Numbered from the stretch's first letter, positions 1,741 to 51,872 are shown. The stretch: 53,120 nt of DNA from Nemertoderma westbladi (GCA_032718475.1 JAUCBJ010002613.1:1-53120), one strand, 5' to 3'. Notes: generated by a model from the sequence alone, not told the origin. Made by a program: numbers and translations.

Positions 1741-1859
1741 TTTTTTATTTTAGTATTTGTATCGTACTGTACTGGCATACCTACCGGTAAGGTTTTTTAC
1801 TTCAGCTTGACAATTAAAGAATAAAATAATTGTATTAACTCAAGCATTTAATTATTATT

Positions 1860-4381
1860 ACTTTAATGCAAGTCTGCATCAATCACCTACATCGCCCTGG
1901 GTCTATAGCAATAGTGTTAACCGAAATTATGTCCATCTTCAGGATTTTATCTCTGGAAATGGATTGTTTTCGGCTGGAACCCAGTTCAAGAAGCGAACTG
2001 GAAAGCTATGGACTCATAGTGGACCCAGTGGTCACAAGTCCCAGATAGACCATATTCTGTTTCGTAGGAAATACAGGAGCTCTATACAAGACTGTAATGC
2101 ATTTACACTTCGACCCTTCTCCAGTGATCACCGCCTTATTGTGGCCAAGGTAAGACTTAGTCTGCGTGCTAGCAGAACAACGAAATCTGCCTTGCCACGG
2201 CATGACTGGTCCTCTCTGTTGCAACAGCCAAGTGTGAGATCCAGCTTCACACTACAGCTGAGCAACAGGTATGAGACTCTTGCCTCTGAGGCGGCAGATC
2301 ACTGTGAGGGCTATACTGCCTTTACAGAAGCAGTTAAGTTAGCAGCTGCAGAAACAGTTCCTGTATACCCTCGAAACAGGAAAAGGGCCCCCTGGACTGA
2401 CAATAAAATTCAGAAGTGCCGAAATGACCTTCATAAGGCGCAGAAAGAGTCCCGACTCAAACAGACAACAGCGGCCAAGAATGCAGTTAAAGCTGCATCT
2501 AGGTCCCTGAACAGGCAGTACTCTGTTAATCTACAGGAGCTAATAAACCAACAGGTTGATGCCATCAATGATGCTGACGACAGCAGGCAATCATCCCAGG
2601 CATGGAAATCGATCAATCTGCTTACTGGGCGGAAAAGCCAACCAACCACCAAGGTTAAGGCTGAATCACCAGCCGATCGCCTCAATGGTTGGAAAGCCCA
2701 CTTTGAAAAGCTCCTCAATAATGACAGGGTATTGCCTGATAACTTTATAGAAGTAAAAGTGTCTGAGTCTGTACTCCCAGATATTCCCATTGGCGATATC
2801 TCCTTTGCAGAAGTGAAGGCTGCTGCAAAGAGCATTAAGACCAATCGTGCCAGTGGAGTAGATGGTGTTCCCCCTGAGGTCTTTAAAATACCTGAGTGTT
2901 TAAAGCTCATCTATCCCATCATAGTAGACATGTACCGTACAACAAGAGTCCCACAAGAAATGAAAACAAATAAGTTGGTGCCAGTTCCCAAGAAGGGCAA
3001 CCTAACACTCTATGGTTCTTTTCGGGGAATCTCATTGATCTCGATTGCTGCAAAACTATACAATAGAATTCTATTAAATCGCATCAGGGATCCCATTGAG
3101 AGACTGCTACGTGGAAATCAGAATGGGTTCCGTAAAGGTCGTGGGACCATGGAGCCCATTTTGGCACTTAGAAGGATAATTGAAGAGTTATCAAAAAAGA
3201 AAGACAGGCATCTGGCTGTTATCTTTGTTGACTTCTTCAAGGCCTTTGATTCAGTCTCTCGCTCACGTATGTTCAGCAACTTTCATTATATGGGATTCCT
3301 GATGAAATTATTGCAGCAATCAGATCAGTATACGATGGTTCGACAACATTTGTGTCTACTGTTGACGGTGACACAGAACCATTTGAAGTGTTATGGGGCG
3401 TCCTCCAAGGAGACACACTTGCACCATTCTTGTTCATTATTGTGGTTGACTATGTTCTACGCATGTCCTTAGATCATCATAATGATGATGGGGTGATGAT
3501 AACTCCATCTACTGGCTCCAGAAGTCGAGGAAATCCTGCCAAGTACCTAACTGATCTAGACTTTGCTGATGACTTAGGAGTACTCTCAGAATCATTAGAG
3601 GGAGCCCAGCGGCTCCTCAGCTCATTAGAACATGCTGCTTCTAGTGTTGGTCTTTTTATTAACTCCAGAAAGACCAAAATTCTGACAGTTAACTTTGAAA
3701 GTCCTCAGCAAGTCTCTGATCGGATGAGCATAAGCTCAAAGGATGGTATGCTTGAGCATGTGGACGACTTCTGTTACCTGGGATCATGGATCCGGAAGTC
3801 AGGTGAGGACCTTCGAATACGTAAGGGAAAGGCATGGGCAGCCTTGAATAGGCTTTCCAGGATTTGGAAGTCACCTAGAATTAATCGGAAACTTAAGGTC
3901 CGATTATTTAGAGCAGCAGTAGTTCCAGTACTCCTCTACGGGAGTCCATGCTGGGCTCTAACTGCTGAGGACACCAAATCTCTGGATGGCACATTCACAA
4001 GAATGCTACGCCGGGTACATTGTGTCAAGTACAATGCACACATCTCCAACCAGACACTATATAACATTGGAGGTGTCTCATTGGTTCCCCCAAGCTTGAC
4101 ACTAGAACAAAATCGCCTCCGCTTTGCAGGACATTGCTTTCGCCGTGAGGACCAGCCAGTGCATAATCTTGTACTTTGGCAGCCTCATGGAGTGAATAAG
4201 CATGGTGGACAGCCCATGACGTTCTTGAGACGCATCTTAAAGGACACTGGCCTTAAAGATGCGGATGATCTAGCAAATGTCATGGGTGATAGGGAGTTGT
4301 GGCGGTGCAATTTTGTTGACAAGCCGGCACAGCATTCTTAAAAATGCAGCTGGAATGCAGCATGCCGATCCTAGTAGTAGT
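1860..4381 (+). mobile_element. RTE-clade non-LTR retrotransposon, 5'-truncated within the AP endonuclease, with one frameshift at about 3278-3280
   Basis: The frame begins at (D)FNA, with APE motifs WTH..QIDHIL..SDH and RT motifs GVDGVPPE, NGFRKGRG, DFFKAFDSV, GVLQGDTLAPFLF and DFADD. The RTE-type C-terminus is RLRFAGHCFR...DRELWR, followed by a short 3' UTR ending in (TAG)n at 4372-4381. ORFs 1964-3472 and 3352-4341 join if one base is restored (MFS[I]LSLYGIPDEII). Confidence 0.92.
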
Positions 4382-11129: not shown

Positions 11130-14100
11130 GATGAGACATTGTGTACCAAACGATACATTGTGGACCAAACGATACATTGTGGACCAAACGATACATTGTT
11201 TACCAAACGAGACATTGTGGACCAAACGATACATTGTTTACCAAACGAGACATTGTGGACCAAACGATACATTGTTTACCAAACGGGACATTGTGTACCA
11301 AACGATACATTGTTTACCAAACGATACATTGTTTACCAAACGAGACATTGTGTACCAAACGATACATTGTTTACCAAATGAGACATTGTGGACCAAACGA
11401 TACATTGTTTACCAAACGAGACATTGTTAACCAAATGAGACATTGTTAACCAAATGAGACATTGTTGACCAAACGATACATTGTTTACCAAACGAGACAA
11501 TGTTTACCAAATGAGATATTGTGTACCAAATGAGACATTGTGTACCAAACGATACATTGTTTACCAAACGAGACAATGTTTACCAAACGAGACATTGTTA
11601 ACCAAATGAGACATTGTGGACCAAACGATACATTGTTTACCAAACGAGACAATGTTTACCAAATGAGATGTTGTGTACTAAATGAGACATTGTGGACCAA
11701 ATGAGACATTGTGTACCAATGAGACATTGTGTACCAAATGGGAAATTGTGTACTAAATGAGACATTGTGTACTAAATGAGACATTGTGTACTAAATGAAA
11801 CATTGTGTACCAAATGAGACATTGTGTACCAAATGGGAAATTGTGTACTAAATGAGACATTGTGTACTAAATGAGACATTGTGTACCAAATGAGACATTG
11901 TGTACCAAATGGGAAATTGTGTACTAATGCTAAATGAGACATTGTGTACTAAATGAGACATTGTTTACCAGATGATACCTTGTGTACCAAATGAGACGTT
12001 GTTTACAAAAGGAGACATTGTGTACCAAATGAAACATTGTGTACCAAATGAGACATTGTGTACCAAATGGGACATTGTGTATCAAATGAGTCATTGTGTA
12101 CCAAATGAGACATTGTGTACCAATTCAGATATTATGTACCAAATGAGACATTGTTTACCAAATGAGACATTGTGTACCATGTGAGATATTGAGATATTGT
12201 AGACATTGTGGACCAAATGAGATCTGCAGAAGAATTCGAGTATATGTTATCGTATATGTGTACAAGCTGATCATTTCTACTTAGTTACTATAGATACCAA
12301 TACCTATTTTTCAATTTGCGGTTTGGCTATACACAATCTATCTTTGTATTTGTATTTTATATTTAGTATATTTGTGCTTGCTGTACTCTAGGTATATCAC
12401 ATATGTGTGTATTTCTATGTACGATATTAAATTAAATTAAAATCAGACATTATGTACCAAATGAGACATTGTGTACCAAATGGGAAATTGTGTACTAAAT
12501 GAGACATTGTGTACTAAATGAGACATTGTGTACCAAATGAGACATTGTGTACCAAATGGGAAATTGTGTACTAAATGAGACATTGTGTACTAAATGAGAC
12601 ATTGTGTACCAAATGAGACGTTGTGTACCAAATGAGACATTGTGTACCAAATGGGAAATTGTGTACTAATACTAAATGAGACATTGTGTACCAAATGAGA
12701 CATTGTGTACCAAATGAGACATTGTGTATCAAATGAGACATTGTGTAGCAAATGAGACATTGTGTACCAATTCAGATATTATGTACCAAATGAGACATTG
12801 TTTACCAAATGAGACATTGTGTACCATATGAGATATTGTGTACCAAATGAGATATTGTGTACCAAATGAGACATTGTGTACCAATTCAGATATTATGTAC
12901 CAAATGAGACATTGTTTACAAAATGAGACATTGTTTACCAAATGAGACATTGTGTACCATATGAGACATTGTGTACCAAATGAGACATTGTGTACCGAAT
13001 GAGACATTGTGTAGCTAATGAGACATTGTGTATCAAATGAGACATTGTGTACCAAATGAGTCATTGTGTAACAAATGAGACATTGTGTACCAATTGAGAT
13101 ATTATGTACCTAATGAGACATTGTGTACCATATGAGACATTGTGTACCAAATGAGACATTGTATACCAAATGAGACATTGTGTAGCTAATGATACATTGT
13201 GTATCAAATCAGACATTGTGTACCAAATAAGTCATTGTGTAAAGTCATTGTGTACCAAATAAGTCATTGTGTAACAAAGGAGACATTGTGTACCAATTCA
13301 GATATTATGTACCAAATGAGACATTGTGTACCAATGAGACATTGTGTACCAATGAGACATTGTGTACTAAATGAGACATTGTTTACCAGATGAGACATTG
13401 TGTACCAAATGAGTCGTTGTTTACAAAAGGAGACATTGTGTACCAAATGAAACATTGTTTATCAAATGAGACATTGTGTATCAAATGAGACATTCTGTAT
13501 CAAATGATACATTGTGTATCAAATGAGACATTGTGTACCAATGAGACATTGTGTACTAAATTAGACATTGTTTACCAGATGAGACATTGTGTACCAATGA
13601 GACATTGTGTACCAATGAGACATTGTGTACTAAATGAGACATTGTTTACCAGATGAGGCATTGTGTACCAAATGAGACGTTCTTTACAAAAGGAGACATT
13701 GTGTACCAAATGAGACATTGTGTATATACCAATTCAGATATTATGTACCAAATAAGACATTGTGTACCATATGAGACATTGTGTAGCAAATGAGACATTG
13801 TGTATCAAATGAATCATTGTGTACCAAATGAGACATTGTGTACCAATTCAGATAGTATGTACCAAATGAGACGTTGTTTACAAAAGGAGACATTGTGTAT
13901 CATATGAGATATTGTGTACCAAATGAGATATTGTGTACCAAATGTGACATTGTGTATCAAATGAGTCATTGTGTACCAAATGAGACATTGTGTACCAATT
14001 CAGATATTATGTACCAAATGAGACATTGTTTACCAAATGAGACATTGTGTACCATGTGAGATATTGTGTACCAAATGAGATATTGTGTACCAAATGAGAC

Positions 14101-16975
14101 ATTGTGTACCAATTCAGATATTATGTACCAAATGAGACTTTGTTTACCAAATGAGACATTGTTTACCAAATGAGACATTGTTTACCAAATGAGACATTGT
14201 GTACCATATGAGACATTGTGTACAAAATGAGACATTGTGTACCAAATGAGACATTGTGTAGCTAATGAGACATTGTGTATCAAATGAGACATTGTGTACC
14301 AAATGAGTCATTGTGTAACAAATGAGACATTGTGTACCAATTCAGATATTATGTACCAAATGAGACATTGTGTATCATATGAGACATTGTGTGCCAAATG
14401 AGACATTGTGTACCAAATGAGACATTGTGTAGCTAATGATACATTGTGTATCAAATCAGACATTGTGTACCAAATGAGTCATTGTGTGTACCAAATAAGA
14501 CATTGTGTACCAAATGAGACATTGTGGACCAAATGAAATCTGCAGAAGAATTCGAGTATATGTTATCGTATATGTGTACAAGCTGATCATTTCTACTTAG
14601 TTACTATAGATACCAATACCTATTTTTCAATTTGCGGTTTGGCTATACACAATCTATCTTTGTATTTGTATTTTATATTTAGTATATTTGTGCTTGCTGT
14701 ACTCTAGGTATATCACATATGTGTGTATTTCTATGTACGATATTAAATTAAATTAAAATCAGACATTATGTACCAAATGAGACATTGTGTACCAAATGGG
14801 AAATTGTGTACTAAATGAGACATTGTGTACTAAATGAGACATTGTGTACCAAATGAGACATTGTGTACCAAATGGGAAATTGTGTACTAAATGAGACATT
14901 GTGTACTAAATGAGACATTGTGTACCAAATGAGACGTTGTGTACCAAATGAGACATTGTGTACCAAATGGGAAATTGTGTACTAATACTAAATGAGATAT
15001 TGTGTACCAAATGAAACATTGTGTACCAAATGAGACATTGTGTATCAAATGAGACATTGTGTAGCAAATGAGACATTGTGTACCAATTCAGATATTATGT
15101 ACCAAATGAGACATTGTTTACCAAATGAGACATTGTGTACCATATGAGATATTGTGTACCAAATGAGATATTGTGTACCAAATGAGACATTGTGTACCAA
15201 TTCAGATATTATGTACCAAATGAGACATTGTTTACAAAATGAGACATTGTTTACCAAATGAGACATTGTGTACCATATGAGACATTGTGTACCAAATGAG
15301 ACATTGTGTACCGAATGAGACATTGTGTAGCTAATGAGACATTGTGTATCAAATGAGACATTGTGTACCAAATGAGTCATTGTGTAACAAATGAGACATT
15401 GTGTACCAATTGAGATATTATGTACCTAATGAGACATTGTGTACCATATGAGACATTGTGTACCAAATGAGACATTGTATACCAAATGAGACATTGTGTA
15501 GCTAATGATACATTGTGTATCAAATCAGACATTGTGTACCAAATAAGTCATTGTGTAAAGTCATTGTGTACCAAATAAGTCATTGTGTAACAAAGGAGAC
15601 ATTGTGTACCAATTCAGATATTATGTACCAAATGAGACATTGTGTACCAATGAGACATTGTGTACCAATGAGACATTGTGTACTAAATGAGACATTGTTT
15701 ACCAGATGAGACATTGTGTACCAAATGAGTCGTTGTTTACAAAAGGAGACATTGTGTACCAAATGAAACATTGTTTATCAAATGAGACATTGTGTATCAA
15801 ATGAGACATTCTGTATCAAATGAGACATTGTGTATCAAATGAGACATTCTGTATCAAATGAGACATTGTGTATCAAATGAGACATTGTGTACCAATGAGA
15901 CATTGTGTACTAAATTAGACATTGTTTACCAGATGAGACATTGTGTACCAATGAGACATTGTGTACCAATGAGACATTGTGTACTAAATGAGACATTGTT
16001 TACCAAATGAGACATTATGTACCATATGAGACATTGTGTACCAAATGAGACATTGTGTACCAATTCAGATATTATGTACCAAATGAGACATTTTTTACCA
16101 AATGATACATTGTTTACCAAATGAGACATTGTGTACCATATGAGACATTGTGTACCAAATGAGACATTGTGTACCAAATGAGACATTGTGTACCAAATGA
16201 GACATTGTGTACCAAATGAGACATTGTGTACCAATTCAGATATTATGTACTAAATGAGACATTGTTTAAAAAATGAGACATTGTGTACCAAATGAGAGAT
16301 TGTGTACCAAATGAGACATTGTGTACCAATTCAGATATTATGTACTAAATGAGACATTGTTTACAAAATGAGACATTGTGTACCAAATGAGACATTGTGT
16401 ACCAAATGAGACATTGTGTACCAAATGAGACATTGTGTACCAAATGAGACATTGTGTGCCAATTCAGATATTATGTATCAAATGAGACATTGTTTACCAA
16501 ATGAGACATTGTGTACCATATGAGACATTGTGTACCAAATGAGACATTGTGTACCAATTCAGATATTATGTACCAAATGAGACATTGTTTACCAAATGAG
16601 ACATTGTTTACCAAATGAGACATTGTGTACCATATGAGACATTGTGTACCAAATGAGACATTGTGTACCAAATGAGACATTGTGTACCAATTCAGATATT
16701 ATGTACTAAATGAGACATTGTTTACAAAATGAGACATTGTGTACCAAATGAGACATTGTGTACCATATGAGACCTTGTGTACCAAATGAGACATTGTGTA
16801 CCATATGAGACATTGTGTACCAAATGATACATTGTGTACCAAATGAGACATTATGTACCATATGAGGCATTGTGTACCAAATCAGACATTGTGTACCAAA
16901 TGAGACATTGTGTACCAAATGAGACATTGTGTACCAATTCAGATATTATGTACCAAATGAGACATTGTGTACCAT
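11130..16975. repeat. 19-bp minisatellite (consensus AAATGAGACATTGTGTACC), about 5.8 kb, with an internal 2316-bp higher-order duplication
   Basis: Direct reading. A unique ~220-bp insert at about 12223-12443 recurs at about 14539-14759, and ORF-track pairs are offset by 2316 (12729/15045, 13199/15515). Confidence 0.97.
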
Positions 16976-23236: not shown

Positions 23237-23374
23237 ATGAGGAAGATAATATTTCCATTCCTGACGCCAATGACATTCAGAACGATAACCGAATTCTAAG
23301 TGTGAAACTTGAAGATCTTACTACCTGCAATTCTATGATAATAAAACATTGGTCTGCATTACATAAAGTGTTGG
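23237..23374 (+). CDS. OSBP: OSBP-like gene, coding exon 3
   Basis: Poly-T acceptor TTTTAG|AT, 138 nt, phase 1-1. DEEDNISIPDANDIQNDNRILSVKLEDLTTCNSMIIKHWSALHKVL matches OSBP LS.K.EDL.TCN.LI.KHG.ALQR.L. Donor G|GTTAGT. Confidence 0.88.
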
Positions 23375-23452
23375 GTTAGTTTGGGGAGTTTTATACGGAG
23401 GCCCGTAGAGGTCATGAAATCCGCGTTTTTTCGCTTAGATAGATTGATGTCA

Positions 23453-24141
23453 TCTAACTCAATATATTGAGTTAGAAGACACATGCTCGCTAACTCAATA
23501 TATTGAGTTAGATGATACATGCTCGATAACTCAATATATTGAGTTAGAAGACACATGCTCGATAACTCAATATATTGAGTTAGAAGACACATGCTCGCTA
23601 ACTCAATATATTGAGTTAGATGATACATGCTCGATAACTCAATATATTGAGTTAGAGGACACATGCTCGCTAACTCAATATATTGAGTTAGATGATACAT
23701 GCTCGATAACTCAATATATTGAGTTAGAAGACACATGCTCGCTAACTCAATATATTGAGTTAGAAGACACATGCTCGCTAACTCAATATATTGAGTTAGA
23801 AGACACATGCTCGCTAACTCAATATATTGAGTTAGAAGACACATGCCCGCTAACTCAATATATTGAGTTAGAAGACACATGCTCGATAACTCAATATATT
23901 GAGTTAGAAGACACATGCTCGATAACTCAATATATTGAGTTAGAAGACACATGCTCGATAACTCAATATATTGAGTTAGAAGACACATGCTCGATAACTC
24001 AATATATTGAGTTAGAAGACACATGCTCGCTAACTCAATATATTGAGTTAGAAGACACATGCTCGATAACTCAATATATTGAGATAGAAGACACATGCTC
24101 GATAACTCAATATATTGAGATAGAAGACACATGCTCGATAA
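23453..24141. repeat. 36-bp tandem repeat, about 19 copies, each with a perfect 20-bp palindrome
   Basis: Unit TAACTCAATATATTGAGTTAGAAGACACATGCTCG(A/C); TAACTCAATA|TATTGAGTTA is self-complementary. Confidence 0.96.
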
Positions 24142-25595
24142 TAATAATAGTAAAATAAGAATAATAAAAAAAACGAGAATTTCATGTCCACTTAGGGGCT
24201 CCGTAGTTTTATCCGAAATCTATATTTTTTATTTATAAAGTTTCCGTTTGGATATTTTAAGATTGATCTGTAAACTTTCACTATGAAGACGGAGAATTGG
24301 TACTACTGGGTAGCTTCGCAAGCCATTTAGTTTAAAAAAAGTAGCACTTTTTGTGCAGTTCTATCTTCTATCTATACATTTAAATTATTTCCATGCTTTT
24401 ATGAAACTCGTGTAGAAGGATCATTAATATCTACAGCACTAGATGCCAAAGTGTAGGAAAATTCCATCGCAATACTAATGTTTTTTTCTATATTTGAGCT
24501 ATATTTAGGCGATCGTATATTTTGAGATAACCAAACTTTAGCAGATACTAAATTGGTTCTTGAACATGCAATTAATTGACCAAGTGTTATAAAACCAATA
24601 TAAACCATCATGCCCTAAAGCTTCTGAACATTTTGGTACAACTTTGATGAAAATTGCGTGAAAAAATATAATATTTAGTAGGGAGGGAATCTATAGTGTA
24701 GCACTGTAGCACTGCGAATTCAGAATTTTCATGTCGAATTCGAATTTTTGAGAGGTTAAATTCGCGAATTTGATTTATAATTTCTCGCCCTTTTTATTAT
24801 TTTGACCGATGGGAAGGTACACTTACGACTTACAAGGATTCCAAATCTGTTTATAAATCTGAAGTTCTTTTAGAATTAGTGGAAATTAGGAGTTTAAAAA
24901 TGCCACGTTTTTTTTACTCCATGAAGCTATTTAATTACAAAATGTTCTAGAAAATATTTATCTGACAGGTCAGTAAATCCAGATTAACTCGCATGTGTTA
25001 ATCACTTCCACATCATTTTGCAAGAATTCGAAATCGTGTAGAATTTAAAGATTGATAGCATTATAATTCATACATGTAATAAAATTTTAGTTAGAATTTA
25101 ATAAAATTCCACATTTCGGCTTACCATATTTAGTGGTGTGTCTTTGCGAAAAAATTGTGACAAATGTTCCAAAAATTTCTATAGCTGTGTATAAAAAATC
25201 CCAAAAGTATTTGTTCAAGGTTTTTGGAAAAAAGTCCAAAAATATGTGTAGTTTTCACATAAAATTGTGCTTGCGCTTTCGATTTTAGGTGTAATTCACT
25301 CCATTTGTTTCATTTAAAAACGACAATAGTTTATGTTGAAATAACGAATAAATTTTTTGGCAACGAGGGTTTTTGAGGTCGTGAAATCAGTTTGACTGTG
25401 TTACACATTCCCTCGTGTAGTATAGAATTGGTGTTAAACACCGTCCTATATTGAACCAGAACCAGCCAAATGATAATAAAACTAATTTAACAAGCGCGAA
25501 AACGCGCTTAAAGGTCCGCGTCTACTAACGCATGGACTGTCTCCTTAAATGGCTTACTACTACCAATCTTACTATCAAAACAAATTCACCAGAAA

Positions 25596-29871: not shown

Positions 29872-29967
29872 CAAAGATATCTAAGATATCTAAGATAAGG
29901 TATATTTAGTAGCACTAATGGATCTATGGGTTGTTGTTATAATTATGTTATTAATAATATTTACTAG

Positions 29968-30077
29968 GTGACTTGGATACTCTACCCCGGTTGGACAGTG
30001 ACGAAGTAGCCCTGCAACTGAAGTGTCTGACGGAACGGGCTACCCTATTTAAAATCAGCAGTAATGCCATGCGCAAC
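29968..30077 (+). CDS. OSBP: OSBP-like gene, coding exon 4 (later exons not found in window)
   Basis: Acceptor TTACTAG|GT is phase-compatible with exon 3. GDLDTLPRLDSDEVALQLKCLTERATLFKISSNAMRN matches OSBP ERATLFRITSNAMIN. Phase-0 donor AAC|GTTAGT. Confidence 0.9.
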
Positions 30078-32440
30078 GTTAGTACCAATATCAACAGTAA
30101 TGCCATGCGCAACGTTAGTACAATTATCAACAGTATTGCCATTCGCAACGTTAGTACAATTATCAGCAGTAATGCCATGCGCAACGTTAGTACCATTATC
30201 AACAGTAATGCCATGCGCAACGTTAGTACAATTATCAGCAGTATTGCCATGCGCAACGTTAGTACAATTATCAACAGTATTGCCATTCGCAACGTTAGTA
30301 CAATTATCAGCAGTATTGCCATGCGCAACGTTAGTACCATTATCAGCAGTAATGCCATGCGCAATGTAGTAACAATATCAGCAGTAATGCCATGCGCAAC
30401 GTTAGTACCAATATCAGCAGTAATGCCATGCGCAACGTTAGTACCAATATCAGCAGTAATGCCATGCGCAACGTTAGTACCATTATCAGCAGTAATGCCA
30501 TGCGCAACGTTAGTAACAATATCAGCAGTAATGCCATGCGCAACGTTAGTACCATTATCAGCAGTATTGCCATGCGCAACGTTAGTACCAATATCAGCAG
30601 TAATGCCATGCGCAACGTTAGTACCATTATCAGCAGTAATGCCATGCGCAACGTTAGTAACAATATCAGCAGTAATGCCATGCGCAACGTTAGTACCAAT
30701 ATCAGCAGTAATGCCATGCGCAACGTTAGTACCAATATCAGCAGTAATGCCATGCGCAACGTTAGTACCATTATCAACAGTAATGCCATGCGCAACGTTA
30801 GTACCAATATCAACAGTATTGCCATGCGCAACGTTAGTACAATTATCAGCAGCAATGCCATGCGCAACGTTAGTAACAATATCAGCAGTAATGCCATGCG
30901 CAACGTTAGTACCAATATCAGCAGTAATGCCATGCGCAACGTTAGTACCAATATCAACAGTATTGCCATGCGCAACGTTAGTACCAATATCAACAGTATT
31001 GCCATGCGCAACGTTAGTACCAATATCAACAGTATTGCCATGCGCAACGTTAGTACAATTATCAGCAGCAATGCCATGCGCAACTTTAGTACCAATATCA
31101 GCAGTAATGCCATGCGCAACGTTAGTACCAATATCAGCAGTAATGCCATGCGCAACGTTAGTACCAATATCAGCAGTAATGCCATGCGCAACGTTAGTAC
31201 CAATATCAACAGTATTGCCATGCGCAACGTTAGTACAATTATCAGCAGCAATGCCATGCGCAACGTTAGTACCATTATCAGCAGTAATGCCATGCGCAAC
31301 GTTAGTAACAATATCAGCAGTAATGCCATGCGCAACGTTAGTACCAATATCAGCAGTAATGCCATGCGCAACGTTAGTACCAATATCAGCAGCAATGCCA
31401 TGCGCAACGTTAGTACCAATATCAGCAGCAATGCCATGCGCAACGTTAGTACCAATATCAGCAGTAATGCCATGCGCAACGTTAGTACCAATATCAGCAG
31501 TAATGCCATGCGCAACGTTAGTAACAATATCAGCAGTAATGCCATGCGCAACGTTAGTACCAATATCAGCAGTAATGCCATGCGCAACGTTAGTACCAAT
31601 ATCAGCAGTAATGCCATGCGCAACGTTAGTACCAATATCAGCAGTAATGCCATGCGCAACGTTAGTACAATTATCAGCAGCAATGCCATGCGCAACGTTA
31701 GTACCAATATCAGCAGTAATGCCATGCGCAACGTTAGTACCAATATCAGCAGTAATGCCATGCGCAACGTTAGTACAATTATCAGCAGCAATGCCATGCG
31801 CAACGTTAGTACCAATATCAGCAGTAATGCCATGCGCAACGTTAGTACAATTATCAGCAGCAATGCCATGCGCAACGTTAGTACAATTATCAGCAGTATT
31901 GCCTTGCGCGACGTTAGTACCAATATCAGCAGTAATGCCATGCGCAACCTTAGTACCAATATCAGCAGTAATGCCATGCGCAACGTTAGTACCAATATCA
32001 GCAGTATTGCCATGCGCAACGTTAGTACAATTATCAGCAGTATTGCCATGCGCAACGTTAGTACAATTATCAGCAGTAATGCCATGCGCAACGTTAGTAC
32101 AATTATCAGCAGTATTGCCATGCGCAACGTTAGTACCAATATCAGCAGTATTGCCATGCGCAACGTTAGTACAATTATCAGCAGTATTGCCATGCGCAAC
32201 GTTAGTACCAATATCAGCAGTAATGCCATGCGCAACCTTAGTACCAATATCAGCAGTAATGCCATGCGCAACGTTAGTACCAATATCAGCAGTATTGCCA
32301 TGCGCAACGTTAGTACAATTATCAGCAGTATTGCCATGCGCAACGTTAGTAACAATATCAGCAGTAATGCCATGCGCAACGTTAGTAACAATATCAGCAG
32401 TAATGCCATGCGCAACGTTAGTAACAATATCAGCAGTAAT
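30054..32440. repeat. 36-bp minisatellite, about 66 copies, made of the last 24 nt of OSBP exon 4 plus the first 12 nt of the intron
   Basis: Unit ATCAGCAGTAATGCCATGCGCAAC|GTTAGTACCAAT. The first copy is the exon end itself, and one unit at about 30365 is 1 nt short. Confidence 0.97.
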
Positions 32441-32683
32441 ACCAAGCCCAATAATCCCCCCCCCCCCCCCCCCCCCCCTAATTTAATAGTTGCATCTCGA
32501 ATGGAAGTTTCGTTTCAGTAAAGGGAAATATTTAATATAAACTAATAATAAAACAAATTAACAAAATTAACGAAGTAAGTAAGTTTGGGCATGCACCTTA
32601 TCTAAAAAATATAGTTTTACTGTACCTAGATTGCTCTGTGTATAGTGTATGGGTCCCAGTAGGTGTCCGAATCGCCGGCGGAC

Positions 32684-39468: not shown

Positions 39469-39929
39469 AGTAGTTCCAGTACTCCTCTACGGGAGTCCAT
39501 GCTGGGCTCTAACTGCTGAGGACACCAAATCTCTGGATGGCACATTCACAAGAATGCTACGCCGGGTACATTGTGTCAAGTACAATGCACACATCTCCAA
39601 CCAGACACTATATAACATTGGAGGTGTCTCATTGGTTCCCCCAAGCTTGACACTAGAACAAAATCGCCTCCGCTTTGCAGGACATTGCTTTCGCCGTGAG
39701 GACCAGCCAGTGCATAATCTTGTACTTTGGCAGCCTCATGGAGTGAATAAGCATGGTGGACAGCCCATGACTTTCTTGAGACGCATCTTAAAGGACACTG
39801 GCCTTAAAGATGCGGATGATCTAGCAAATGTCATGGGTGATAGGGAGTTGTGGCGGTGCAATTTTGTTGACAAGCCGGCACAGCATTCTTAAAAATGCAG
39901 CTGCAATGCAGCATGCCGATCCTAGTAGT
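39469..39929 (+). mobile_element. Second, heavily 5'-truncated copy of the RTE element
   Basis: Near-identical to 3918-4378, with two substitutions noticed. It is flanked by the direct repeat GTGATAGTGATAG (39454-39466 and 39928-39940). Confidence 0.95.
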
Positions 39930-42577: not shown

Positions 42578-43106
42578 GATGTAAATGTGAATGAACCAGC
42601 AAACACAGAATCACCACCAAAAGATCTACTGATCATTAACGATAGATTAAGCCTGTAAAGGAAATGTGTAGTGACAGTGATGGTAATAAACGCGAACGAA
42701 CCGAGTGGGAGTTCTTTTTTTTATGAACAGCCTGTAATTCACCCTACCGGAGAATTGAATGCATGCCTTCAAAAGTGTATGTGAAGTGTTCCGGTACAGG
42801 TACGTTGGATAATCAGGCTTACAGTACAGTATTGTTTTCCGCATTAGAATCAGATTAGGCTAATAATACCGGTATAATAAGTCATTCTCCACTCCATCCT
42901 CTATTGCAGTCGTGGAATTTGATTATTAACTGAACCGTATATAGCTATGGTATATACGATAGTAGCTTTTGGTAAGTGTTCACAGTTCTGAAAGATTTCG
43001 TAGTGGTTGTGTATCAGTATATATAAACAGAAACACTAAACCGATGATATATGCGGAGTGCTGATCGGGAAGTTTATTAAGATAGCCTCGGAAATCTGGT
43101 GTTGCC

Positions 43107-44930
43107 ATGTCAACGAGTCCGGATCACCCGGTCGACATAAACCAGGCGACGGCGGCTGAGTTGGGTCGGTCGCTGGTCCGAGTGGGTCTGTCCCGCGCCC
43201 AGGCTATAGTGGACACCCGCAACGCCGTGGGCCCCTTTGTATCGGTGGACCAACTCTCCTCTATCGAGGGAATCTCTGCGGGTTTGGTCGACCAGAATCG
43301 CCATCGTCTCTACTGCACCACGCTGACCCCCTCGGTTTCCCCGACTACGAGGTCCGCCACGCCCGTCGCCATGAAACGCAAGTCGACCACGATGGCGGTG
43401 GGGCTGAGCGGCGGGGCGCTTTCCCCCGGGAAGAAAACCCGCGTGCGGGGGGAAACAGACTGCGACATGGAGGAGGACGACCCGTTGCCTAGCATCGGGG
43501 GGTCGCCAGCTGGTCCCACCGAGCTCTCTGATTGGTTGGCAACCTTCCAGGAATGGACCCCGACGGAACGCAGTAAAGCCTTACGGACTCTGGTTGAGAG
43601 CTGTTCGATAGAACACGTTAAAGAGATGCTGGCTATTATAGAGCCTCAGTTACAACGCGACTTTATTTCCCTGCTCCCCAGGGAGTTATCGCTTTATATC
43701 CTCGGCTTCCTCCTTCCCTTCGACCTGTGCCAGGCCTCCAAGGTCTCCAGACTGTGGCGCATTATGAGCGACGACCATCTGTTATGGCGTGATAAATGCC
43801 GATTAGAAGGCATCGAGTTGCCCGCGGCGTCTCCCCAGCAACACGGTTGCCCGTGGAAACGGGCGTACCTGCGCGAACGCGAGATGGACGAGAACTGGCG
43901 CTCCCGGCCGCTGCGATCCGCCAAGCTCCTCAAGGGCCACGACGATCACGTGATCACCTGTCTGCAGTTCCGGGGCGATCGGATCGTGAGCGGCTCGGAC
44001 GACAACACGCTCAAGGTGTGGGACGCCTCTAGCGGTGAGTGTCTGCGCACGCTGACAGGGCACACGGGCGGTGTCTGGTCCTCACAGGTCACCGACTCTG
44101 TGGTTATCTCCGGGAGCACGGATCGCACATTGAAGATCTGGTCGTTGGACAGCGGGGAGTGTCTGTACACGCTGTACGGACACACGTCGACGGTGCGGTG
44201 CATGGACCTGTCGGGGGACCTCGTGGTGAGCGGATCACGGGATGCGACGCTCAGACTGTGGGACATCAACACTGGAGTCTGTCGGCGAGTGATGATGGGA
44301 CACGTAGCAGCGGTTCGATGCGTTCAGTACGACGGTAACTACATCGTGAGCGGGGCTTACGATTTCGTTGTGAAGGTGTGGAATCCGTTGACTGAAGAGT
44401 GTTTGCACACCCTGCAGGGTCACGCAAACCGCGTGTACTCCTTGCGTTTCGACGGAGAGTTTATCGTTAGCGGCTCGTTGGACACCTCGATACGGATATG
44501 GAGGGTGTCTACGGGGGAGTGGTTGCACACCCTGGTGGGGCATCAGAGTCTCACCAGCGGGATGGAGGTCTGCGGGAACCTGTTGGTGTCCGGCAACGCG
44601 GACTCAAAGGTGAAGATCTGGGACATACCGTCCGGGCGGTGTCTGCACACTCTAGAGGAGGGGCCGAATAAACACCAGTCCGCGGTCACCAGTCTCGCGT
44701 TGTACAACAAGAAGTTCGTGATCACCTCGTCGGACGATGGGACTGTTAAACTGTGGGACCTGAGGACGGGGTTGTTTATACGCAATCTAGTGGTGCTAGA
44801 GTCTGGTGGCAGTGGGGGTGTCGTCTGGAGGGTCAATGTGTCAAACACTAAACTCGTTTGTGCAGCCGGATCTCGTAATGGCACAGAGGAGACCAAACTA
44901 CACGTTCTAGACTTTGGTATTCATAATTAA
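43107..44930 (+). CDS. FBXW7: FBXW7/Cdc4/Archipelago-family F-box WD40 protein with an N-terminal ComEA-like helix-hairpin-helix domain; single coding exon, 607 aa
   Basis: GCCATG start and an uninterrupted GC-rich ORF. It has a D-domain (WL..FQ.W...E...AL..LVESC...VK.M..IIEPQ.QRDFISLLP), an F-box, and WD40 repeats with FBXW7-diagnostic strings (LKGHDDHVITCLQF, GHTSTVRCM, SGSRDATLR, GHVAAVRCVQYDG, GHQSLTSGME, GPNKHQSAVT, ESGGSGGVVWR, GSRNGTEETKL). Confidence 0.96.
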   Translation: MSTSPDHPVDINQATAAELGRSLVRVGLSRAQAIVDTRNAVGPFVSVDQLSSIEGISAGLVDQNRHRLYCTTLTPSVSPTTRSATPVAMKRKSTTMAVGLSGGALSPGKKTRVRGETDCDMEEDDPLPSIGGSPAGPTELSDWLATFQEWTPTERSKALRTLVESCSIEHVKEMLAIIEPQLQRDFISLLPRELSLYILGFLLPFDLCQASKVSRLWRIMSDDHLLWRDKCRLEGIELPAASPQQHGCPWKRAYLREREMDENWRSRPLRSAKLLKGHDDHVITCLQFRGDRIVSGSDDNTLKVWDASSGECLRTLTGHTGGVWSSQVTDSVVISGSTDRTLKIWSLDSGECLYTLYGHTSTVRCMDLSGDLVVSGSRDATLRLWDINTGVCRRVMMGHVAAVRCVQYDGNYIVSGAYDFVVKVWNPLTEECLHTLQGHANRVYSLRFDGEFIVSGSLDTSIRIWRVSTGEWLHTLVGHQSLTSGMEVCGNLLVSGNADSKVKIWDIPSGRCLHTLEEGPNKHQSAVTSLALYNKKFVITSSDDGTVKLWDLRTGLFIRNLVVLESGGSGGVVWRVNVSNTKLVCAAGSRNGTEETKLHVLDFGIHN

Positions 44931-45552
44931 TCAGTCGTATCGGGTGGGAAACATCGAGCTAACGTTGGCAGTTAGCGAGTGAGACAGTCAGATGGGTTTT
45001 ATTTAATGGATTTTTTCGAACTCTTATTGTAATCCGTCAATCTGTAAAAATGGGAACCTTCAAACATTTAAATTTTAGTTGAATATTTTGTAAATTTAAA
45101 TCGTATTGATAGTGATTAGTCGACTTTTTATTGTCTCATTTGCATTTAGAACTATATTTCGATTTTCGGCACATTCGCGTGATTCATTTTTGTGGTTAAT
45201 TTTTATTTTAATTTTCCTTGGTTGACAGCAACTCTATTGATTAACCCAGTATATTTATTCATCCATTCAACATTGGCTCAGTTGTGGTTCTGTGTTGAAA
45301 CTTCACCAAGACGATCGCCTATTATATATATATATACGCCCCGTCCCCACCATGAAATGAATTTACTTTTAGGTAATTTGTAAATAATTTCATTATTGTG
45401 TATCGTATATGTTCCAAATATTTAGTTTAACATTTTGCAGATTATTTACAGCATGGCATGGTTTATTATTATATAACAAACAGTCGTCTTAGAGCATAAC
45501 ATAATGATGGTTTTAGTTTATTATTTTCTCTGCTGCCTCTATATAACCCACG

Positions 45553-45790
45553 GTGGTGAACAAGCAGCATTCCTTTGGGAAACAGAGTGGAAGGGTTTAC
45601 TGTGGAAGATCACCCATGGTGGTGAACAGGCATTCCTTTAGGAAACAGAGTGGAAGGGTTTACTGTGGAAGATCACCCATGGTGATGAACAGGCATTCCT
45701 TTAGGAAACAGAGTGGAAGGGTTTACTGTGGACGATCACCCATGGTGGTGAACAGGAATTCCTTTAGGAAACTGAGTGGAATGGTTTACC
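45553..45790. repeat. 63-bp tandem repeat, about 3.7 copies
   Basis: Unit GTGGTGAACAGGCATTCCTTTAGGAAACAGAGTGGAAGGGTTTACTGTGGAAGATCACCCATG. Confidence 0.92.
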
Positions 45791-48485: not shown

Positions 48486-49479
48486 TGTTACGAACGCTAA
48501 GAAATCTTGAAATATTTACAATAGTTATGAAAATTGATTTTCCTCACTCGTCGAAAAAAAGTTAAAAATAAAAGTTGTTTCATGCGCTATTGACTTCAGT
48601 TTATTATTTTAGTTAGAATAACGTGCCACTGTAACCTGTTCATTTCGCTTTCCCTTACTTGTCTATAACGTGTATTTTTGCGACGAGCTTTGTTCGGGGG
48701 CGTTTATTTTACTGGGGGAGAGGAATACACCAAGCTTAAATTTATTTCATTTGATGGCCATGCATAACATAGGCAATATTAAATTCTAAGAAATAATTAA
48801 CGAAATTATAATCAGTTTTCCCGAACTGGCAGTCTCAGTAGGACATCGACTAAGCGCATTGAATTGTGCAATGCGCTCTGGTTATAAGGACAATACTTTG
48901 GCCGAAATTTATATGATGCGTGTTGACTCCAGCTGCATTTATGTTACTTAGCAACTACTAATAAACAAAAAGGGGGGTGAGTCAGCCATTTTACTCTTGG
49001 TAAATTAGTCACTCAGTCAGGGGTCCAGAATGGGATTACAATTCACTTCATTTTCAATGAAATCTCATTAAATAGAAGTCAATTAGCCTCATGATAAGGC
49101 AGGGATTTCAAAATATTTGATATTTATTGTTATTCAATCGGCTATTGGGAGTGGTATAAATAGATAATAATTTAACCTGTGATTGGTCGACTTATTTCGG
49201 TTTTTATCAAAAGTCTGAAACTACCGGTACTGTCCGTGTAACCGGCAGACCATTCAACCAGTACTGTTCACTGTTATTATAGGCCTACTCCAGTATTCCC
49301 CGGTATACCCCCGGTGTACAATCTAAGATACACTGTGCCTACGTTTCACTATAGGCCTACCCTACTTATTTCAAATACTAAATTTCAGCATTTTGGAATG
49401 CAATGCACTATACTGGTATTATTAGGTTGTTCATTGTGATACTATAATGTAAAGACAAACCAAACTCAGACTTCAAGAC

Positions 49480-49772
49480 GAAAACATTGAGAATAAAAAC
49501 ATTGAGAATAAAACATTGAGAATAAAAACATTGTGAAAAAAAAACATTGTGAAAAAAACATTGAGAATAAAAACATTGTGAAATAAAAACATTGAGAAAA
49601 AACATTGAGAATAAAAACATTGTGAAAAAAAAACATTGAGAAAAAAACATTGAGAATAAAAACATTGTGAATAAAAAACATTGAGAAAAAAACATTGAGA
49701 ATAAAAACATTGTGAAAAAAAAACATTGAGAAAAAAACATTGAGAATAAAAACATTGTGAAAAAAAACATTG
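49480..49772. repeat. A-rich 13-16 bp variable tandem repeat
   Basis: AAAAACATTGAGAAT / AAAAACATTGTGAA units. Confidence 0.9.
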
Positions 49773-50100
49773 AATGTTAATACTAAATGTATGCCATATT
49801 TTCGTACTTACTCCACTGGTGCACAGTACCAGTATCGTACCGGTAGGTCATCATTACTTCGGAGTCTCTAGCGTATCTCCAATAAATTGTCTTAACTTTT
49901 CAATTTCGTAAAAGATAGACTTCACGATTATCTACAAGTAACAAAAATTTCAGCTCTGGAAAATGAGGCGTTCCGGGGAAATTTGGAGAGAGGGGGGGGG
50001 GGGGGGGGGGGGAATTGACGCAAATCCCATCTTGGCTAATTAATATCCCGCCTCAATGTTACATTCTCAATTTAGGGAAAGAAACAGTTGTGAACAGAAA

Positions 50101-51040
50101 TATTGTGTACCAAATTAGACATTGTGTACCAAATAAGACATTGTGTACCAGATTAGACATTGTGTGTACCAACTGAGACATTGTGGACCAAACGATACAT
50201 TGTTAACCTAATGAGACATTGTGTACCAAATGAGAAATAATGTACCAAATGAGACATTGTGTACCAAATGAGACATTGTGTGTACCAAATAGACATTGTG
50301 TGTACCAAAGGAGACATTGTGTACCAAATGATACATTGTGTACCAAATGATAGGCTACATAATGTACCAAATGATAGGCTACATAATGTACCAAATGAGA
50401 CATTGTGTACCAATGAGACATTTTGTACCAAATGAGATATTGTGTGTACCAAATGAGACTTGTGTACCGAATTAGACATTGTGTACCAAATGAGACATTG
50501 TGTACCAAATGAGACATTGTGTACAAAGTGAGACATTGTGTACCAATGATACATTGAGTACCAATGAGACATTTGTGTACCAAATGAGACATTGTGTACC
50601 AATGAGACATTGTGTACCAATGAAACATTGTGTACAAAGTGAGAAATTGTGTACCAAATGAGACACGGTGTACCAAATGAGTCATTGTGTACCAAATGAG
50701 TCATTGTGTACCAAATGAGACATTGTGTACCAATGAGACATTGTGTACCAAATGAGACAATGTGTACCAATGAGACATTGTGTACCAAATCATATATTGT
50801 GTACTAAATGAGACATTGTGTACCAAATGAGATTTTGTGTACTAAATGAGACATTGTGTACCAAATGAGACATTGTGTACCAAATGAGACATTGTGTACC
50901 AAATGAGACATTGTGTACCAAATGAGACATTGAGTACCAATGAGACAGTGTGTACCAAATGAGACATTGTGTACCAAATGAGACATTGTGTACCAAATGA
51001 GACATTGTGTACCAAATGAGACGAGACATTGTGTACCAAA
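50101..51040. repeat. Second array of the 19-bp AAATGAGACATTGTGTACC minisatellite, embedded in an inverted G-run MITE (49992-51137)
   Basis: Same unit and orientation as 11130-16975. The flanks are the reverse complement of the two halves of the 18183/18866 element. Confidence 0.93.
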
Positions 51041-51872
51041 CTGTTGACATTGTCTGCCAAGCTGTTATTTGCGTCGAATTTCCCCTGGAGAGGGATAGAT
51101 TTTTATTGCGTCGAATGCCCCCCCCCCCCCCCCCCCCTCCCCACTCCTACCTGGTAGTTTGACATTTTCTTAAAACACAATCTTTCGTAAATTACGTCAG
51201 ACTGCATGATTTTTCACCAAACTTTACAAATCGTCTAAACCTTCCCTCTGCTACTTACCTACTACGTTTGGTTCAATTCCGAACCAGCGATACCGAGAAA
51301 TTCGCGTTCAAACATTTATCAGACAGACAGACGGACGGACAGACAGGCGGACTTTGCCCTGTATCAACCGTCCGCCAAGGCTCCCCGGCGACTTGTCTCT
51401 CCCCAGATTTATATAATTATACAACAACTGACGATTCATTGGCTACCACGTTATCCGGTCTTAAATTATGTGGTCGATAGATATTGAATAGTAGATTAGA
51501 TAATAGATAAATTTGGGATAGGTATGAGTAATCCTGTGCCAAAAATGTGAAGAGACCTAGACCTGTTTAGTTACTAAATTACACTGCTCAGAACTACAAT
51601 GGGCTCAGTCTAACCGGTAAGTGGTAAGGCCTAAACTTAATAAGACTATACTTAAACTCATCTCATAATATATGTTAACCAGACGGTGACTAGCTTTAGT
51701 TTTAATGCAGTATATTCCACAATAAATAGGTATAACATTGGTTATAGAAAATGAACAAATATTACTGTCGAAATGTGAAATATTTGATCTGCCAACTTTT
51801 GACATTGTGGCTTGTGAGTCAGAATTATTATTTTCTCTTTCAATCTTCTGATTCACAATAACAAATTTTGAG

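Follow-up and report, generated by a model that had tools for sequence, protein, structure and literature searches.

An FBXW7 ubiquitin-ligase receptor with an N-terminal ComEA-type helix-hairpin-helix domain in Nemertoderma westbladi and other animals

The tumour suppressor FBXW7 has been studied intensively, and the list of domains assigned to it derives from the proteins of human, mouse, fly, worm and yeast. The human and mouse proteins and, to our knowledge, those of fly, worm and yeast have been described without a helix-hairpin-helix (HhH) domain. In a 53,120-nucleotide stretch of Nemertoderma westbladi DNA, referred to here as the window, an open reading frame places such a domain ahead of what reads as a complete FBXW7, raising the questions of whether the fusion is real, where the domain came from and what it might do. 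The gene has the following features.

43107–44930, + strand: intronless open reading frame of 607 amino acids, an FBXW7 orthologue with the order (HhH)2, linker, D-domain, F-box, WD40.
43125–43316, + strand: (HhH)2 domain of the ComEA/HHH_3 type, residues 7–70, from profiles, models and fold searches; ends in N-x3-hydrophobic-x-C.
43317–43517, + strand: linker, residues 71–137, predicted to be disordered (pLDDT below 50 over residues 76–137), with Met89 (43371) and the basic segment MKRK...GKK.
43518–43661, + strand: dimerization (D) domain, about residues 138–185, from model helices 140–189 and alignment to human FBXW7 5' of the F-box; role as given in the available text of PMC1802738.
43665–43802, + strand: F-box, residues 187–232 (F-box-like PF12937, E = 8.5e-12; PF00646, E = 2.8e-8; both over the cut-off).
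43911–44915, + strand: WD40 propeller, about residues 269–603, from a profile and alignment to human FBXW7.

The window protein is an intact FBXW7 carrying an N-terminal (HhH)2 domain. The best solved-structure match of its body is human FBXW7 (E = 1.6e-213, with beta-TrCP at only 1.4e-70), and core identity with vertebrate FBXW7 reaches up to 70%. Sequence features expected of an FBXW7/Cdc4 SCF receptor are present: a D-domain 5' of the F-box, an orthologous WD40 domain after it, and three WD40 arginines, R364, R378 and R404, that correspond in spacing and in identical sequence contexts to R465, R479 and R505 of human FBXW7. These human residues are the substrate (phosphodegron-binding) arginines, numbered here according to PMC6486556 (available in part). 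The MKRK...GKK segment coincides with the point at which, in isoform models, the common part of the vertebrate FBXW7 isoforms starts. The initial annotation had thus identified the partner of the HhH domain correctly.

The domain itself was described there as a ComEA/HHH_3-type (HhH)2 module at 43131–43310, and both the assignment and the coordinates stand. Pfam HHH_3 (PF12836) matches residues 7–68 with 52.7 bits (E = 4.6e-14, cut-off 27). TIGR00426, which represents the ComEA HhH region, matches residues 9–68 with 55 bits when scanned against residues 1–80 (cut-off 53.1) and with 49.9 bits, under the cut-off, in a scan of the whole protein; the family-specific end of the domain reaches Cys70 (43316). 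AlphaFold2 models the domain at a pLDDT of about 96, and a fold search with this model retrieves ComEA from Geobacillus (8dss, Z 11.9, rmsd 3.1, 70 residues aligned) and Thermus (2duy, Z 10.0, rmsd 1.6, 63 aligned) as well as Tex (Z 10.3), with concordant results from Foldseek. PsbU and GspK have the same fold in this search, and we know of no DNA binding by either.

In each of four sequencing runs examined (three studies, with one run possibly the source of the window), one contig crosses the HhH-to-WD40 junction without a gap, so the fusion is not an assembly join and the domain is in frame with FBXW7, as had been claimed. The HhH part is matched by only one contig per run (at 85% likeness). 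Four coding differences are listed between the runs and the window, all of them synonymous, and none is listed between runs within 43107–43316. The HhH part and the core have third-position GC values of 0.71 and 0.72, whereas the overall GC of the flanks is 0.39 and 0.33; the reading frame as a whole, at 57–69% GC, is distinct within a window of about 30–45% GC. A TAG stop lies in frame 24 nt 5' of the ATG at 43107, and the sequence from the HhH domain to the D-domain yielded no acceptor-like site. Run X4 covers 42910–45359 about 1500-fold and 42669–42835 not at all, a pattern that might be that of a transcript assembly.

The window surrounding the gene is repeat-rich animal DNA with reverse-transcriptase remnants. 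A reverse-transcriptase reading frame open at its 5' end occupies 1–1563 on the + strand (RVT_1, E = 9e-8) and has a C-terminal Cys/His region that we take to resemble those of Penelope-like elements. It is followed at 1811–4341 (+) by a frameshifted LINE-type reverse transcriptase with RVT_1 in two frames, the 3' end of which recurs at 39470–39892 (+), with an identical translation at 39554–39892. Long tandem or low-complexity repeats with spurious reading frames lie at 12700–15430, 23359–24219, 29950–32520, 45550–45790 and 49400–51500, and the repeat unit at 45550–45790 is very high-copy in all runs. An Rfam scan of the window gave no matches, Atlas matches were confined to FBXW7 and F-box clusters, and no relatives were found in 134 candidate stretches of viral contigs.

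The fusion had been presented as special to one lineage. This reading fails: many invertebrate FBXW7 proteins have the same architecture, as does a second vertebrate gene, and its being common among invertebrates was an outcome that the initial annotation had named beforehand as one that would count against the idea. The analysis covered the best 120 of 889 matches to a whole-protein query (E ≤ 1e-100); ranking by an HhH-bearing query biases these 120 towards HhH-bearing proteins. An FBXW7-HhH profile (E < 1e-3) matched 72 of them, and 60 have the whole domain in the same place, at or near the N terminus. These 60 comprise 25 proteins from named invertebrates of eight phyla (arthropods, molluscs, an annelid, a brachiopod, a nemertean, echinoderms, a hemichordate and amphioxus), 13 from other assemblies, and 22 vertebrate proteins of a second type, FBXW7-like, from rays, lungfish, a caecilian, a newt, turtles, squamates and birds. 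The other 12 profile matches are one truncated nemertean model, eight half domains in bird models fused to RRP8 and three remnants in canonical FBXW7, and each of the 48 homologues of the 120 without a profile match can be assigned to vertebrates from its name or its place in the tree. Clusters supplied further members from more sharks, alligator, axolotl and oysters. Many members without a species name are whole on contigs of about 2.5–4.4 kb, which from their length are likely to be transcript assemblies.

A WD40-pattern scan of metagenomes found the domain in frame with FBXW7 at 6 of 80 loci (L001, L010–L012, L031 and L034). Invertebrate-type FBXW7 lacking the domain is frequent among the metagenome loci, with 12 others used for trees, and many of the remaining loci are fragments or other WD40 proteins; some of the HhH-less forms may be other isoforms or incomplete. 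Eight loci (L002, L003, L006, L008, L014, L033, L043 and L063) encode arthropod-like FBXW7 with no HhH domain detected and long acidic N termini, which have a common motif around DPKPGPS...FDLEVFDSGSSCS. When residues 1–155 were searched against 50% clusters, at least 150 proteins were returned, mostly with multiple HhH motifs, and no F-box, EEP or kinesin family was among the best Pfam families of the 31 scanned. Two word-indexed searches restricted to the HhH region gave 0 of 766 candidates and, among 123, the query alone, results that are due to the word filter given how many such proteins the whole-protein query retrieved.

Grouping the HhH-less forms as a single clade (15 of 43 rows, with the long branches L018, L019 and L023 left out) was rejected (p-AU 0.008), which points to repeated loss of the domain. 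HhH-FBXW7 is likely to be the ancestral animal form, and the window gene is an ordinary member of an old, apparently overlooked architecture.

In a 53-row tree of the D-domain, F-box and WD40 core, canonical FBXW7 and FBXW7-like each form one clade, and the two vertebrate groups together are separated from all invertebrates and the window with a branch support of 99/98. The core trees exclude Acipenser P0006, which has a duplicated C terminus, and the window core is a long branch in no supported group. A canonical protein occurs together with an FBXW7-like one in sawfish, in wall lizard and in rattlesnake, and database models of FBXW7-like with a whole HhH domain occur in sharks, rays, lungfish, amphibians, turtles, squamates, crocodilians and birds. 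The sister relationship of the two genes fits a duplication in early jawed vertebrates, after which FBXW7-like would have retained the domain and canonical FBXW7 would have dropped its first hairpin, with its alpha isoform now starting inside the last helix; independent losses of the domain would have taken place elsewhere among animals. No mammalian or ray-finned fish FBXW7-like was found among the best 120 of 889 matches or the cluster members examined, and it is possible that the gene was lost in both groups.

Database models of bird FBXW7-like frequently bear the name of 'ribosomal RNA-processing protein 8' (RRP8) isoforms, in some cases as RRP8-FBXW7 read-through models (P0001, P0007, P0015, P0088, P0090, P0095, P0096, P0103, P0120 and one cluster). 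This annotation may have hidden the FBXW7-like gene. The RRP8 region is presumably paralogous to the FBXW7 region, with ARFIP, TRIM2/3 and DCHS as gene pairs.

Two bacterial explanations of the N terminus were considered. The first, that the sequence is a bacterial ComEA protein, does not fit a full-length TIGR01259 score of 36.9 bits (cut-off 152.35) or the six residues that are all that precede the domain, with no signal peptide. The second, recent horizontal acquisition, had been raised in the initial annotation and is disfavoured by the presence of the domain in 60 orthologues and by the HhH tree (58 rows, 69 columns, EEPD1 and KIF22 left out), in which the window and 25 FBXW7 domains are separated from 32 other HhH domains with a support of 97/95. 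In a quick HhH tree, the window is the first branch on the FBXW7 side. An AU test taken alone does not reject forcing the window together with three ComEA-like proteins (p-AU 0.21, 69 columns).

We consider it highly improbable that the window domain is a separate recent gain from a proteobacterial ComEA/YbaV gene, even though several comparisons other than the AU test lean that way. In pairwise comparison the domain scores highest with P0252, a ComEA-like protein that appears to have a signal peptide (59.0 bits, with the top FBXW7 domain at 53.6), profiles of window-like HhH proteins score the domain at 83–87 bits against 74–76, and the domain has a GPF motif and a one-residue insertion in common with a Motiliproteus sequence (L081, 50% identity). 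However, the proteins compared had been chosen because they resemble the window and L081 came from a search with window-derived patterns, so the bacterial match scores are inflated; the insertion also occurs in vertebrate FBXW7-like; and the location and C-terminal motif of the domain are those of at least 60 orthologues. A single old origin of the FBXW7 HhH domains is the simplest reading. The best solved-structure sequence match of the domain is EEPD1 (E = 1e-10 summed over two domains), followed by KIF22 and ComEA, and a five-sequence profile gives EEPD1 (E = 6e-30), then ComEA and KIF22. The ultimate source may have been either an ancient bacterial gene or an EEPD1/KIF22-like eukaryotic one.

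What the domain might do can be approached through the residues on which ComEA depends. DNA binding by Vibrio cholerae ComEA depends on residues that follow the first hairpin, namely G60 and K62/K63; a further residue, R71, is conserved (PMC3879209, in the text available). By spacing, G60, K63 and R71 correspond to G27, R30 and R38 of the window. Across the family, a G[IV]GxxK/R-A motif that includes the K63-equivalent position is present in 60 of 62 homologues, the R71-equivalent arginine in all 62 FBXW7 HhH domains, and the hairpin of vertebrate FBXW7-like is strongly basic (GIGRRRAR). The C-terminal N-x3-hydrophobic-x-C motif occurs in 58 of the 62 and in the window, against 2 of 150 other HhH domains. 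Within the window hairpin, R-V-G-L-S-R, the second glycine and the K63-equivalent Arg30 are retained. The first glycine, invariant in 62 of 62 homologues, is replaced by Arg25, the K62 equivalent is a serine, and the net charge of the domain is −1, against a homologue median of +4. From its sequence, therefore, the domain of the window looks weaker than those of its relatives.

These substitutions bear on the possibility that the domain has been weakened or is mostly skipped in N. westbladi, with the working protein made from Met89 in the manner of the short vertebrate isoforms. The context of Met89 (43371; GTCGCCATGA) is equal in quality to that of Met1, so that translation could begin at either. 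Within 200 nt of Met1, at 42947–43080, there are three short upstream ATG frames (14, 6 and 9 codons). Repeated loss of the domain among animals is in keeping with the same idea. We nevertheless think this distinctly unlikely, given that the domain exceeds its family cut-offs (HHH_3, and TIGR00426 on residues 1–80), is modelled with high pLDDT, has the codon signature of the core and spans a segment without listed differences between runs.

Our best guess for the role of a functioning domain is a DNA tether. We consider it reasonably probable that the protein acts as an SCF receptor dimer in which two flexibly tethered, weak, putative DNA binders hold the ligase on chromatin. Dimerization through the D-domain would display two HhH domains on flexible linkers of about 65 residues, each of which would grip the backbone of duplex DNA weakly and without sequence specificity through its hairpin and Arg30, with avidity arising from the dimer as in EEPD1. 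The local concentration of the ligase would thereby be raised at DNA-bound substrates and damage sites, and the choice of phosphodegron would still be made by the WD40 pocket. The model draws on the retained ComEA hairpin residues and on three precedents, each from a source available in part: EEPD1 binds double-stranded DNA only as a full-length dimer, its isolated HhH pair showing no stable binding (PMC12988330); Fbw7 dimerizes via a domain ahead of the F-box (PMC1802738); and human FBXW7 is recruited to DNA breaks through poly(ADP-ribose) (PAR) binding by its WD40 domain (PMC6486556).

A conserved ancestral domain could instead have another ligand (protein, RNA or poly(ADP-ribose)) or serve as a structural or auto-regulatory cap. 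HHH_3-like folds include PsbU, GspK, Tex/Spt6 and TEFM, the HhH motifs of a ComEA homologue bind fibronectin (PMC2601033, in part), and the family-specific C-terminal asparagine and cysteine could mark a different surface. We regard this as unlikely, because the hairpin glycine and the basic K63 equivalent are retained in 60 of 62 homologues, the FBXW7-like hairpin is so strongly basic, and the nearest solved relatives by sequence, EEPD1 and ComEA, are DNA binders.

The HhH domain also bears on canonical vertebrate FBXW7. The initial annotation held that characterized FBXW7 proteins have no such domain, which is true of the whole domain in canonical vertebrate models, but a remnant of the second hairpin is found at the alpha start. 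Seventeen canonical models (from rabbit, pika, bats, bustard, lizards, teleosts, sawfish and one other) reach 5' of the annotated alpha start and have a block in common, which in most tetrapod models is NVKTFASSDSLAKVQEVASWLLE, immediately before MNQELLS. In a gap-free alignment the block matches the second hairpin of the HhH domain and the start methionine falls on the last helix, suggesting that canonical FBXW7 probably broke the ancestral domain. When an invertebrate-only profile was tested against shuffled sequences for 6 of the 17 models, none of 2000 shuffles scored as high as the real sequence in rabbit, bustard, gecko and bat, 0–1 of 2000 did so for a teleost and 3 of 2000 for sawfish. 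With a vertebrate FBXW7-like profile the sawfish result was weak (28 and 22 of 2000), and hhalign profile-profile comparison gave the short remnant an E value of 3e-4 with a probability of only 40–45%. On this evidence, the annotated FBXW7-alpha start likely lies inside a remnant of the HhH domain.

The divergent 5' ends of the canonical models merge four residues ahead of a conserved phenylalanine, and the bird models fused to RRP8 enter FBXW7-like at the residue equivalent to this convergence point. The common junction residue suggests a shared exon boundary, as judged from protein models. An axolotl FBXW7-like model has a short first exon like that of a canonical short isoform. The available text of Liu et al. 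reports no new reading frame in seven human alpha 5' UTR forms (PMC3498124).

In canonical lizard, teleost and sawfish models (P0097, P0099–P0102, P0065, P0066, P0081, P0086 and P0106), a Cys-rich start, MCGCGCSIISSLMKRLGR, is the same from sawfish to lizards and is in frame with the HhH remnant. The Cys-rich segment is absent from the six mammalian models seen. This form looks like a real long alpha isoform, and the segment is possibly lipid-modified, which is a guess.

Taken together, these observations lead us to offer, tentatively and as a serious possibility that falls a little short of probable, a joint reading for FBXW7 as a whole. Ancestral FBXW7 would have been a DNA-tethered ligase, a form kept as a second gene beside RRP8 in non-mammalian jawed vertebrates, and the alpha methionine would fall within the last helix of what is left of the domain. 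The second hairpin would be encoded by the 23 conserved codons that precede this methionine and are treated in mammals as 5' UTR; sharks, teleosts, lizards and perhaps mammals would still translate them, in a longer isoform whose first exon is Cys-rich. If so, the PAR binding and ATM-dependent retention of human FBXW7 at DNA breaks would be a residue of, or a replacement for, a direct DNA tether.

The HhH-FBXW7 architecture is apparently undescribed and may have been noted elsewhere. No description of an HhH-F-box-WD40 FBXW7 was found among the literature matches listed, a set with most subscription papers outside its scope, and automatic Pfam annotation shows the architecture. The matches listed likewise held nothing on N-terminal extensions of FBXW7 itself, and nothing was found on the FBXW7-like paralogue or its HhH domain. 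A review of FBXW7 in the DNA damage response gives, in its available text, only the DD, F-box and WD40 as domains (PMC8573206), and one supplement of PMC11317171, in the part available, has no FBXW7 entry. The interest of the locus lies in its implications for vertebrate FBXW7, the gene of the window not being special in itself. It points to a vertebrate paralogue without a name of its own, concealed by gene models labelled RRP8, and suggests why sequence directly 5' of the alpha start codon is conserved. Should the HhH form be ancestral, the way in which SCF-FBXW7 locates its substrates on chromatin becomes directly testable.

Among known systems, human FBXW7/Fbw7 (Cdc4, SEL-10, Archipelago) resembles the window protein in its D-domain, F-box, WD40 domain and three arginines. 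Its isoforms, in the available text of PMC8573206, have only these domains and variable N termini, whereas in the window protein a complete (HhH)2 domain precedes them. Vertebrate FBXW7-like and invertebrate FBXW7 have an architecture identical to that of the window protein, with the HhH domain N-terminal, but their linkers are longer (and acidic in the vertebrate models), and the window gene differs from them in being intronless and on a long branch. ComEA (HHH_3, TIGR00426) is alike in fold and in the residues matched by G27, R30 and R38, but it is exported or membrane-anchored and acts in DNA uptake, whereas the window protein has no signal peptide before the domain. EEPD1 and KIF22, like the window protein, are animal proteins in which a ComEA-type (HhH)2 is flexibly joined to another module, namely an EEP domain in EEPD1, which has two HhH domains, and a kinesin motor in KIF22; unlike the window protein, neither is a ubiquitin-ligase receptor.
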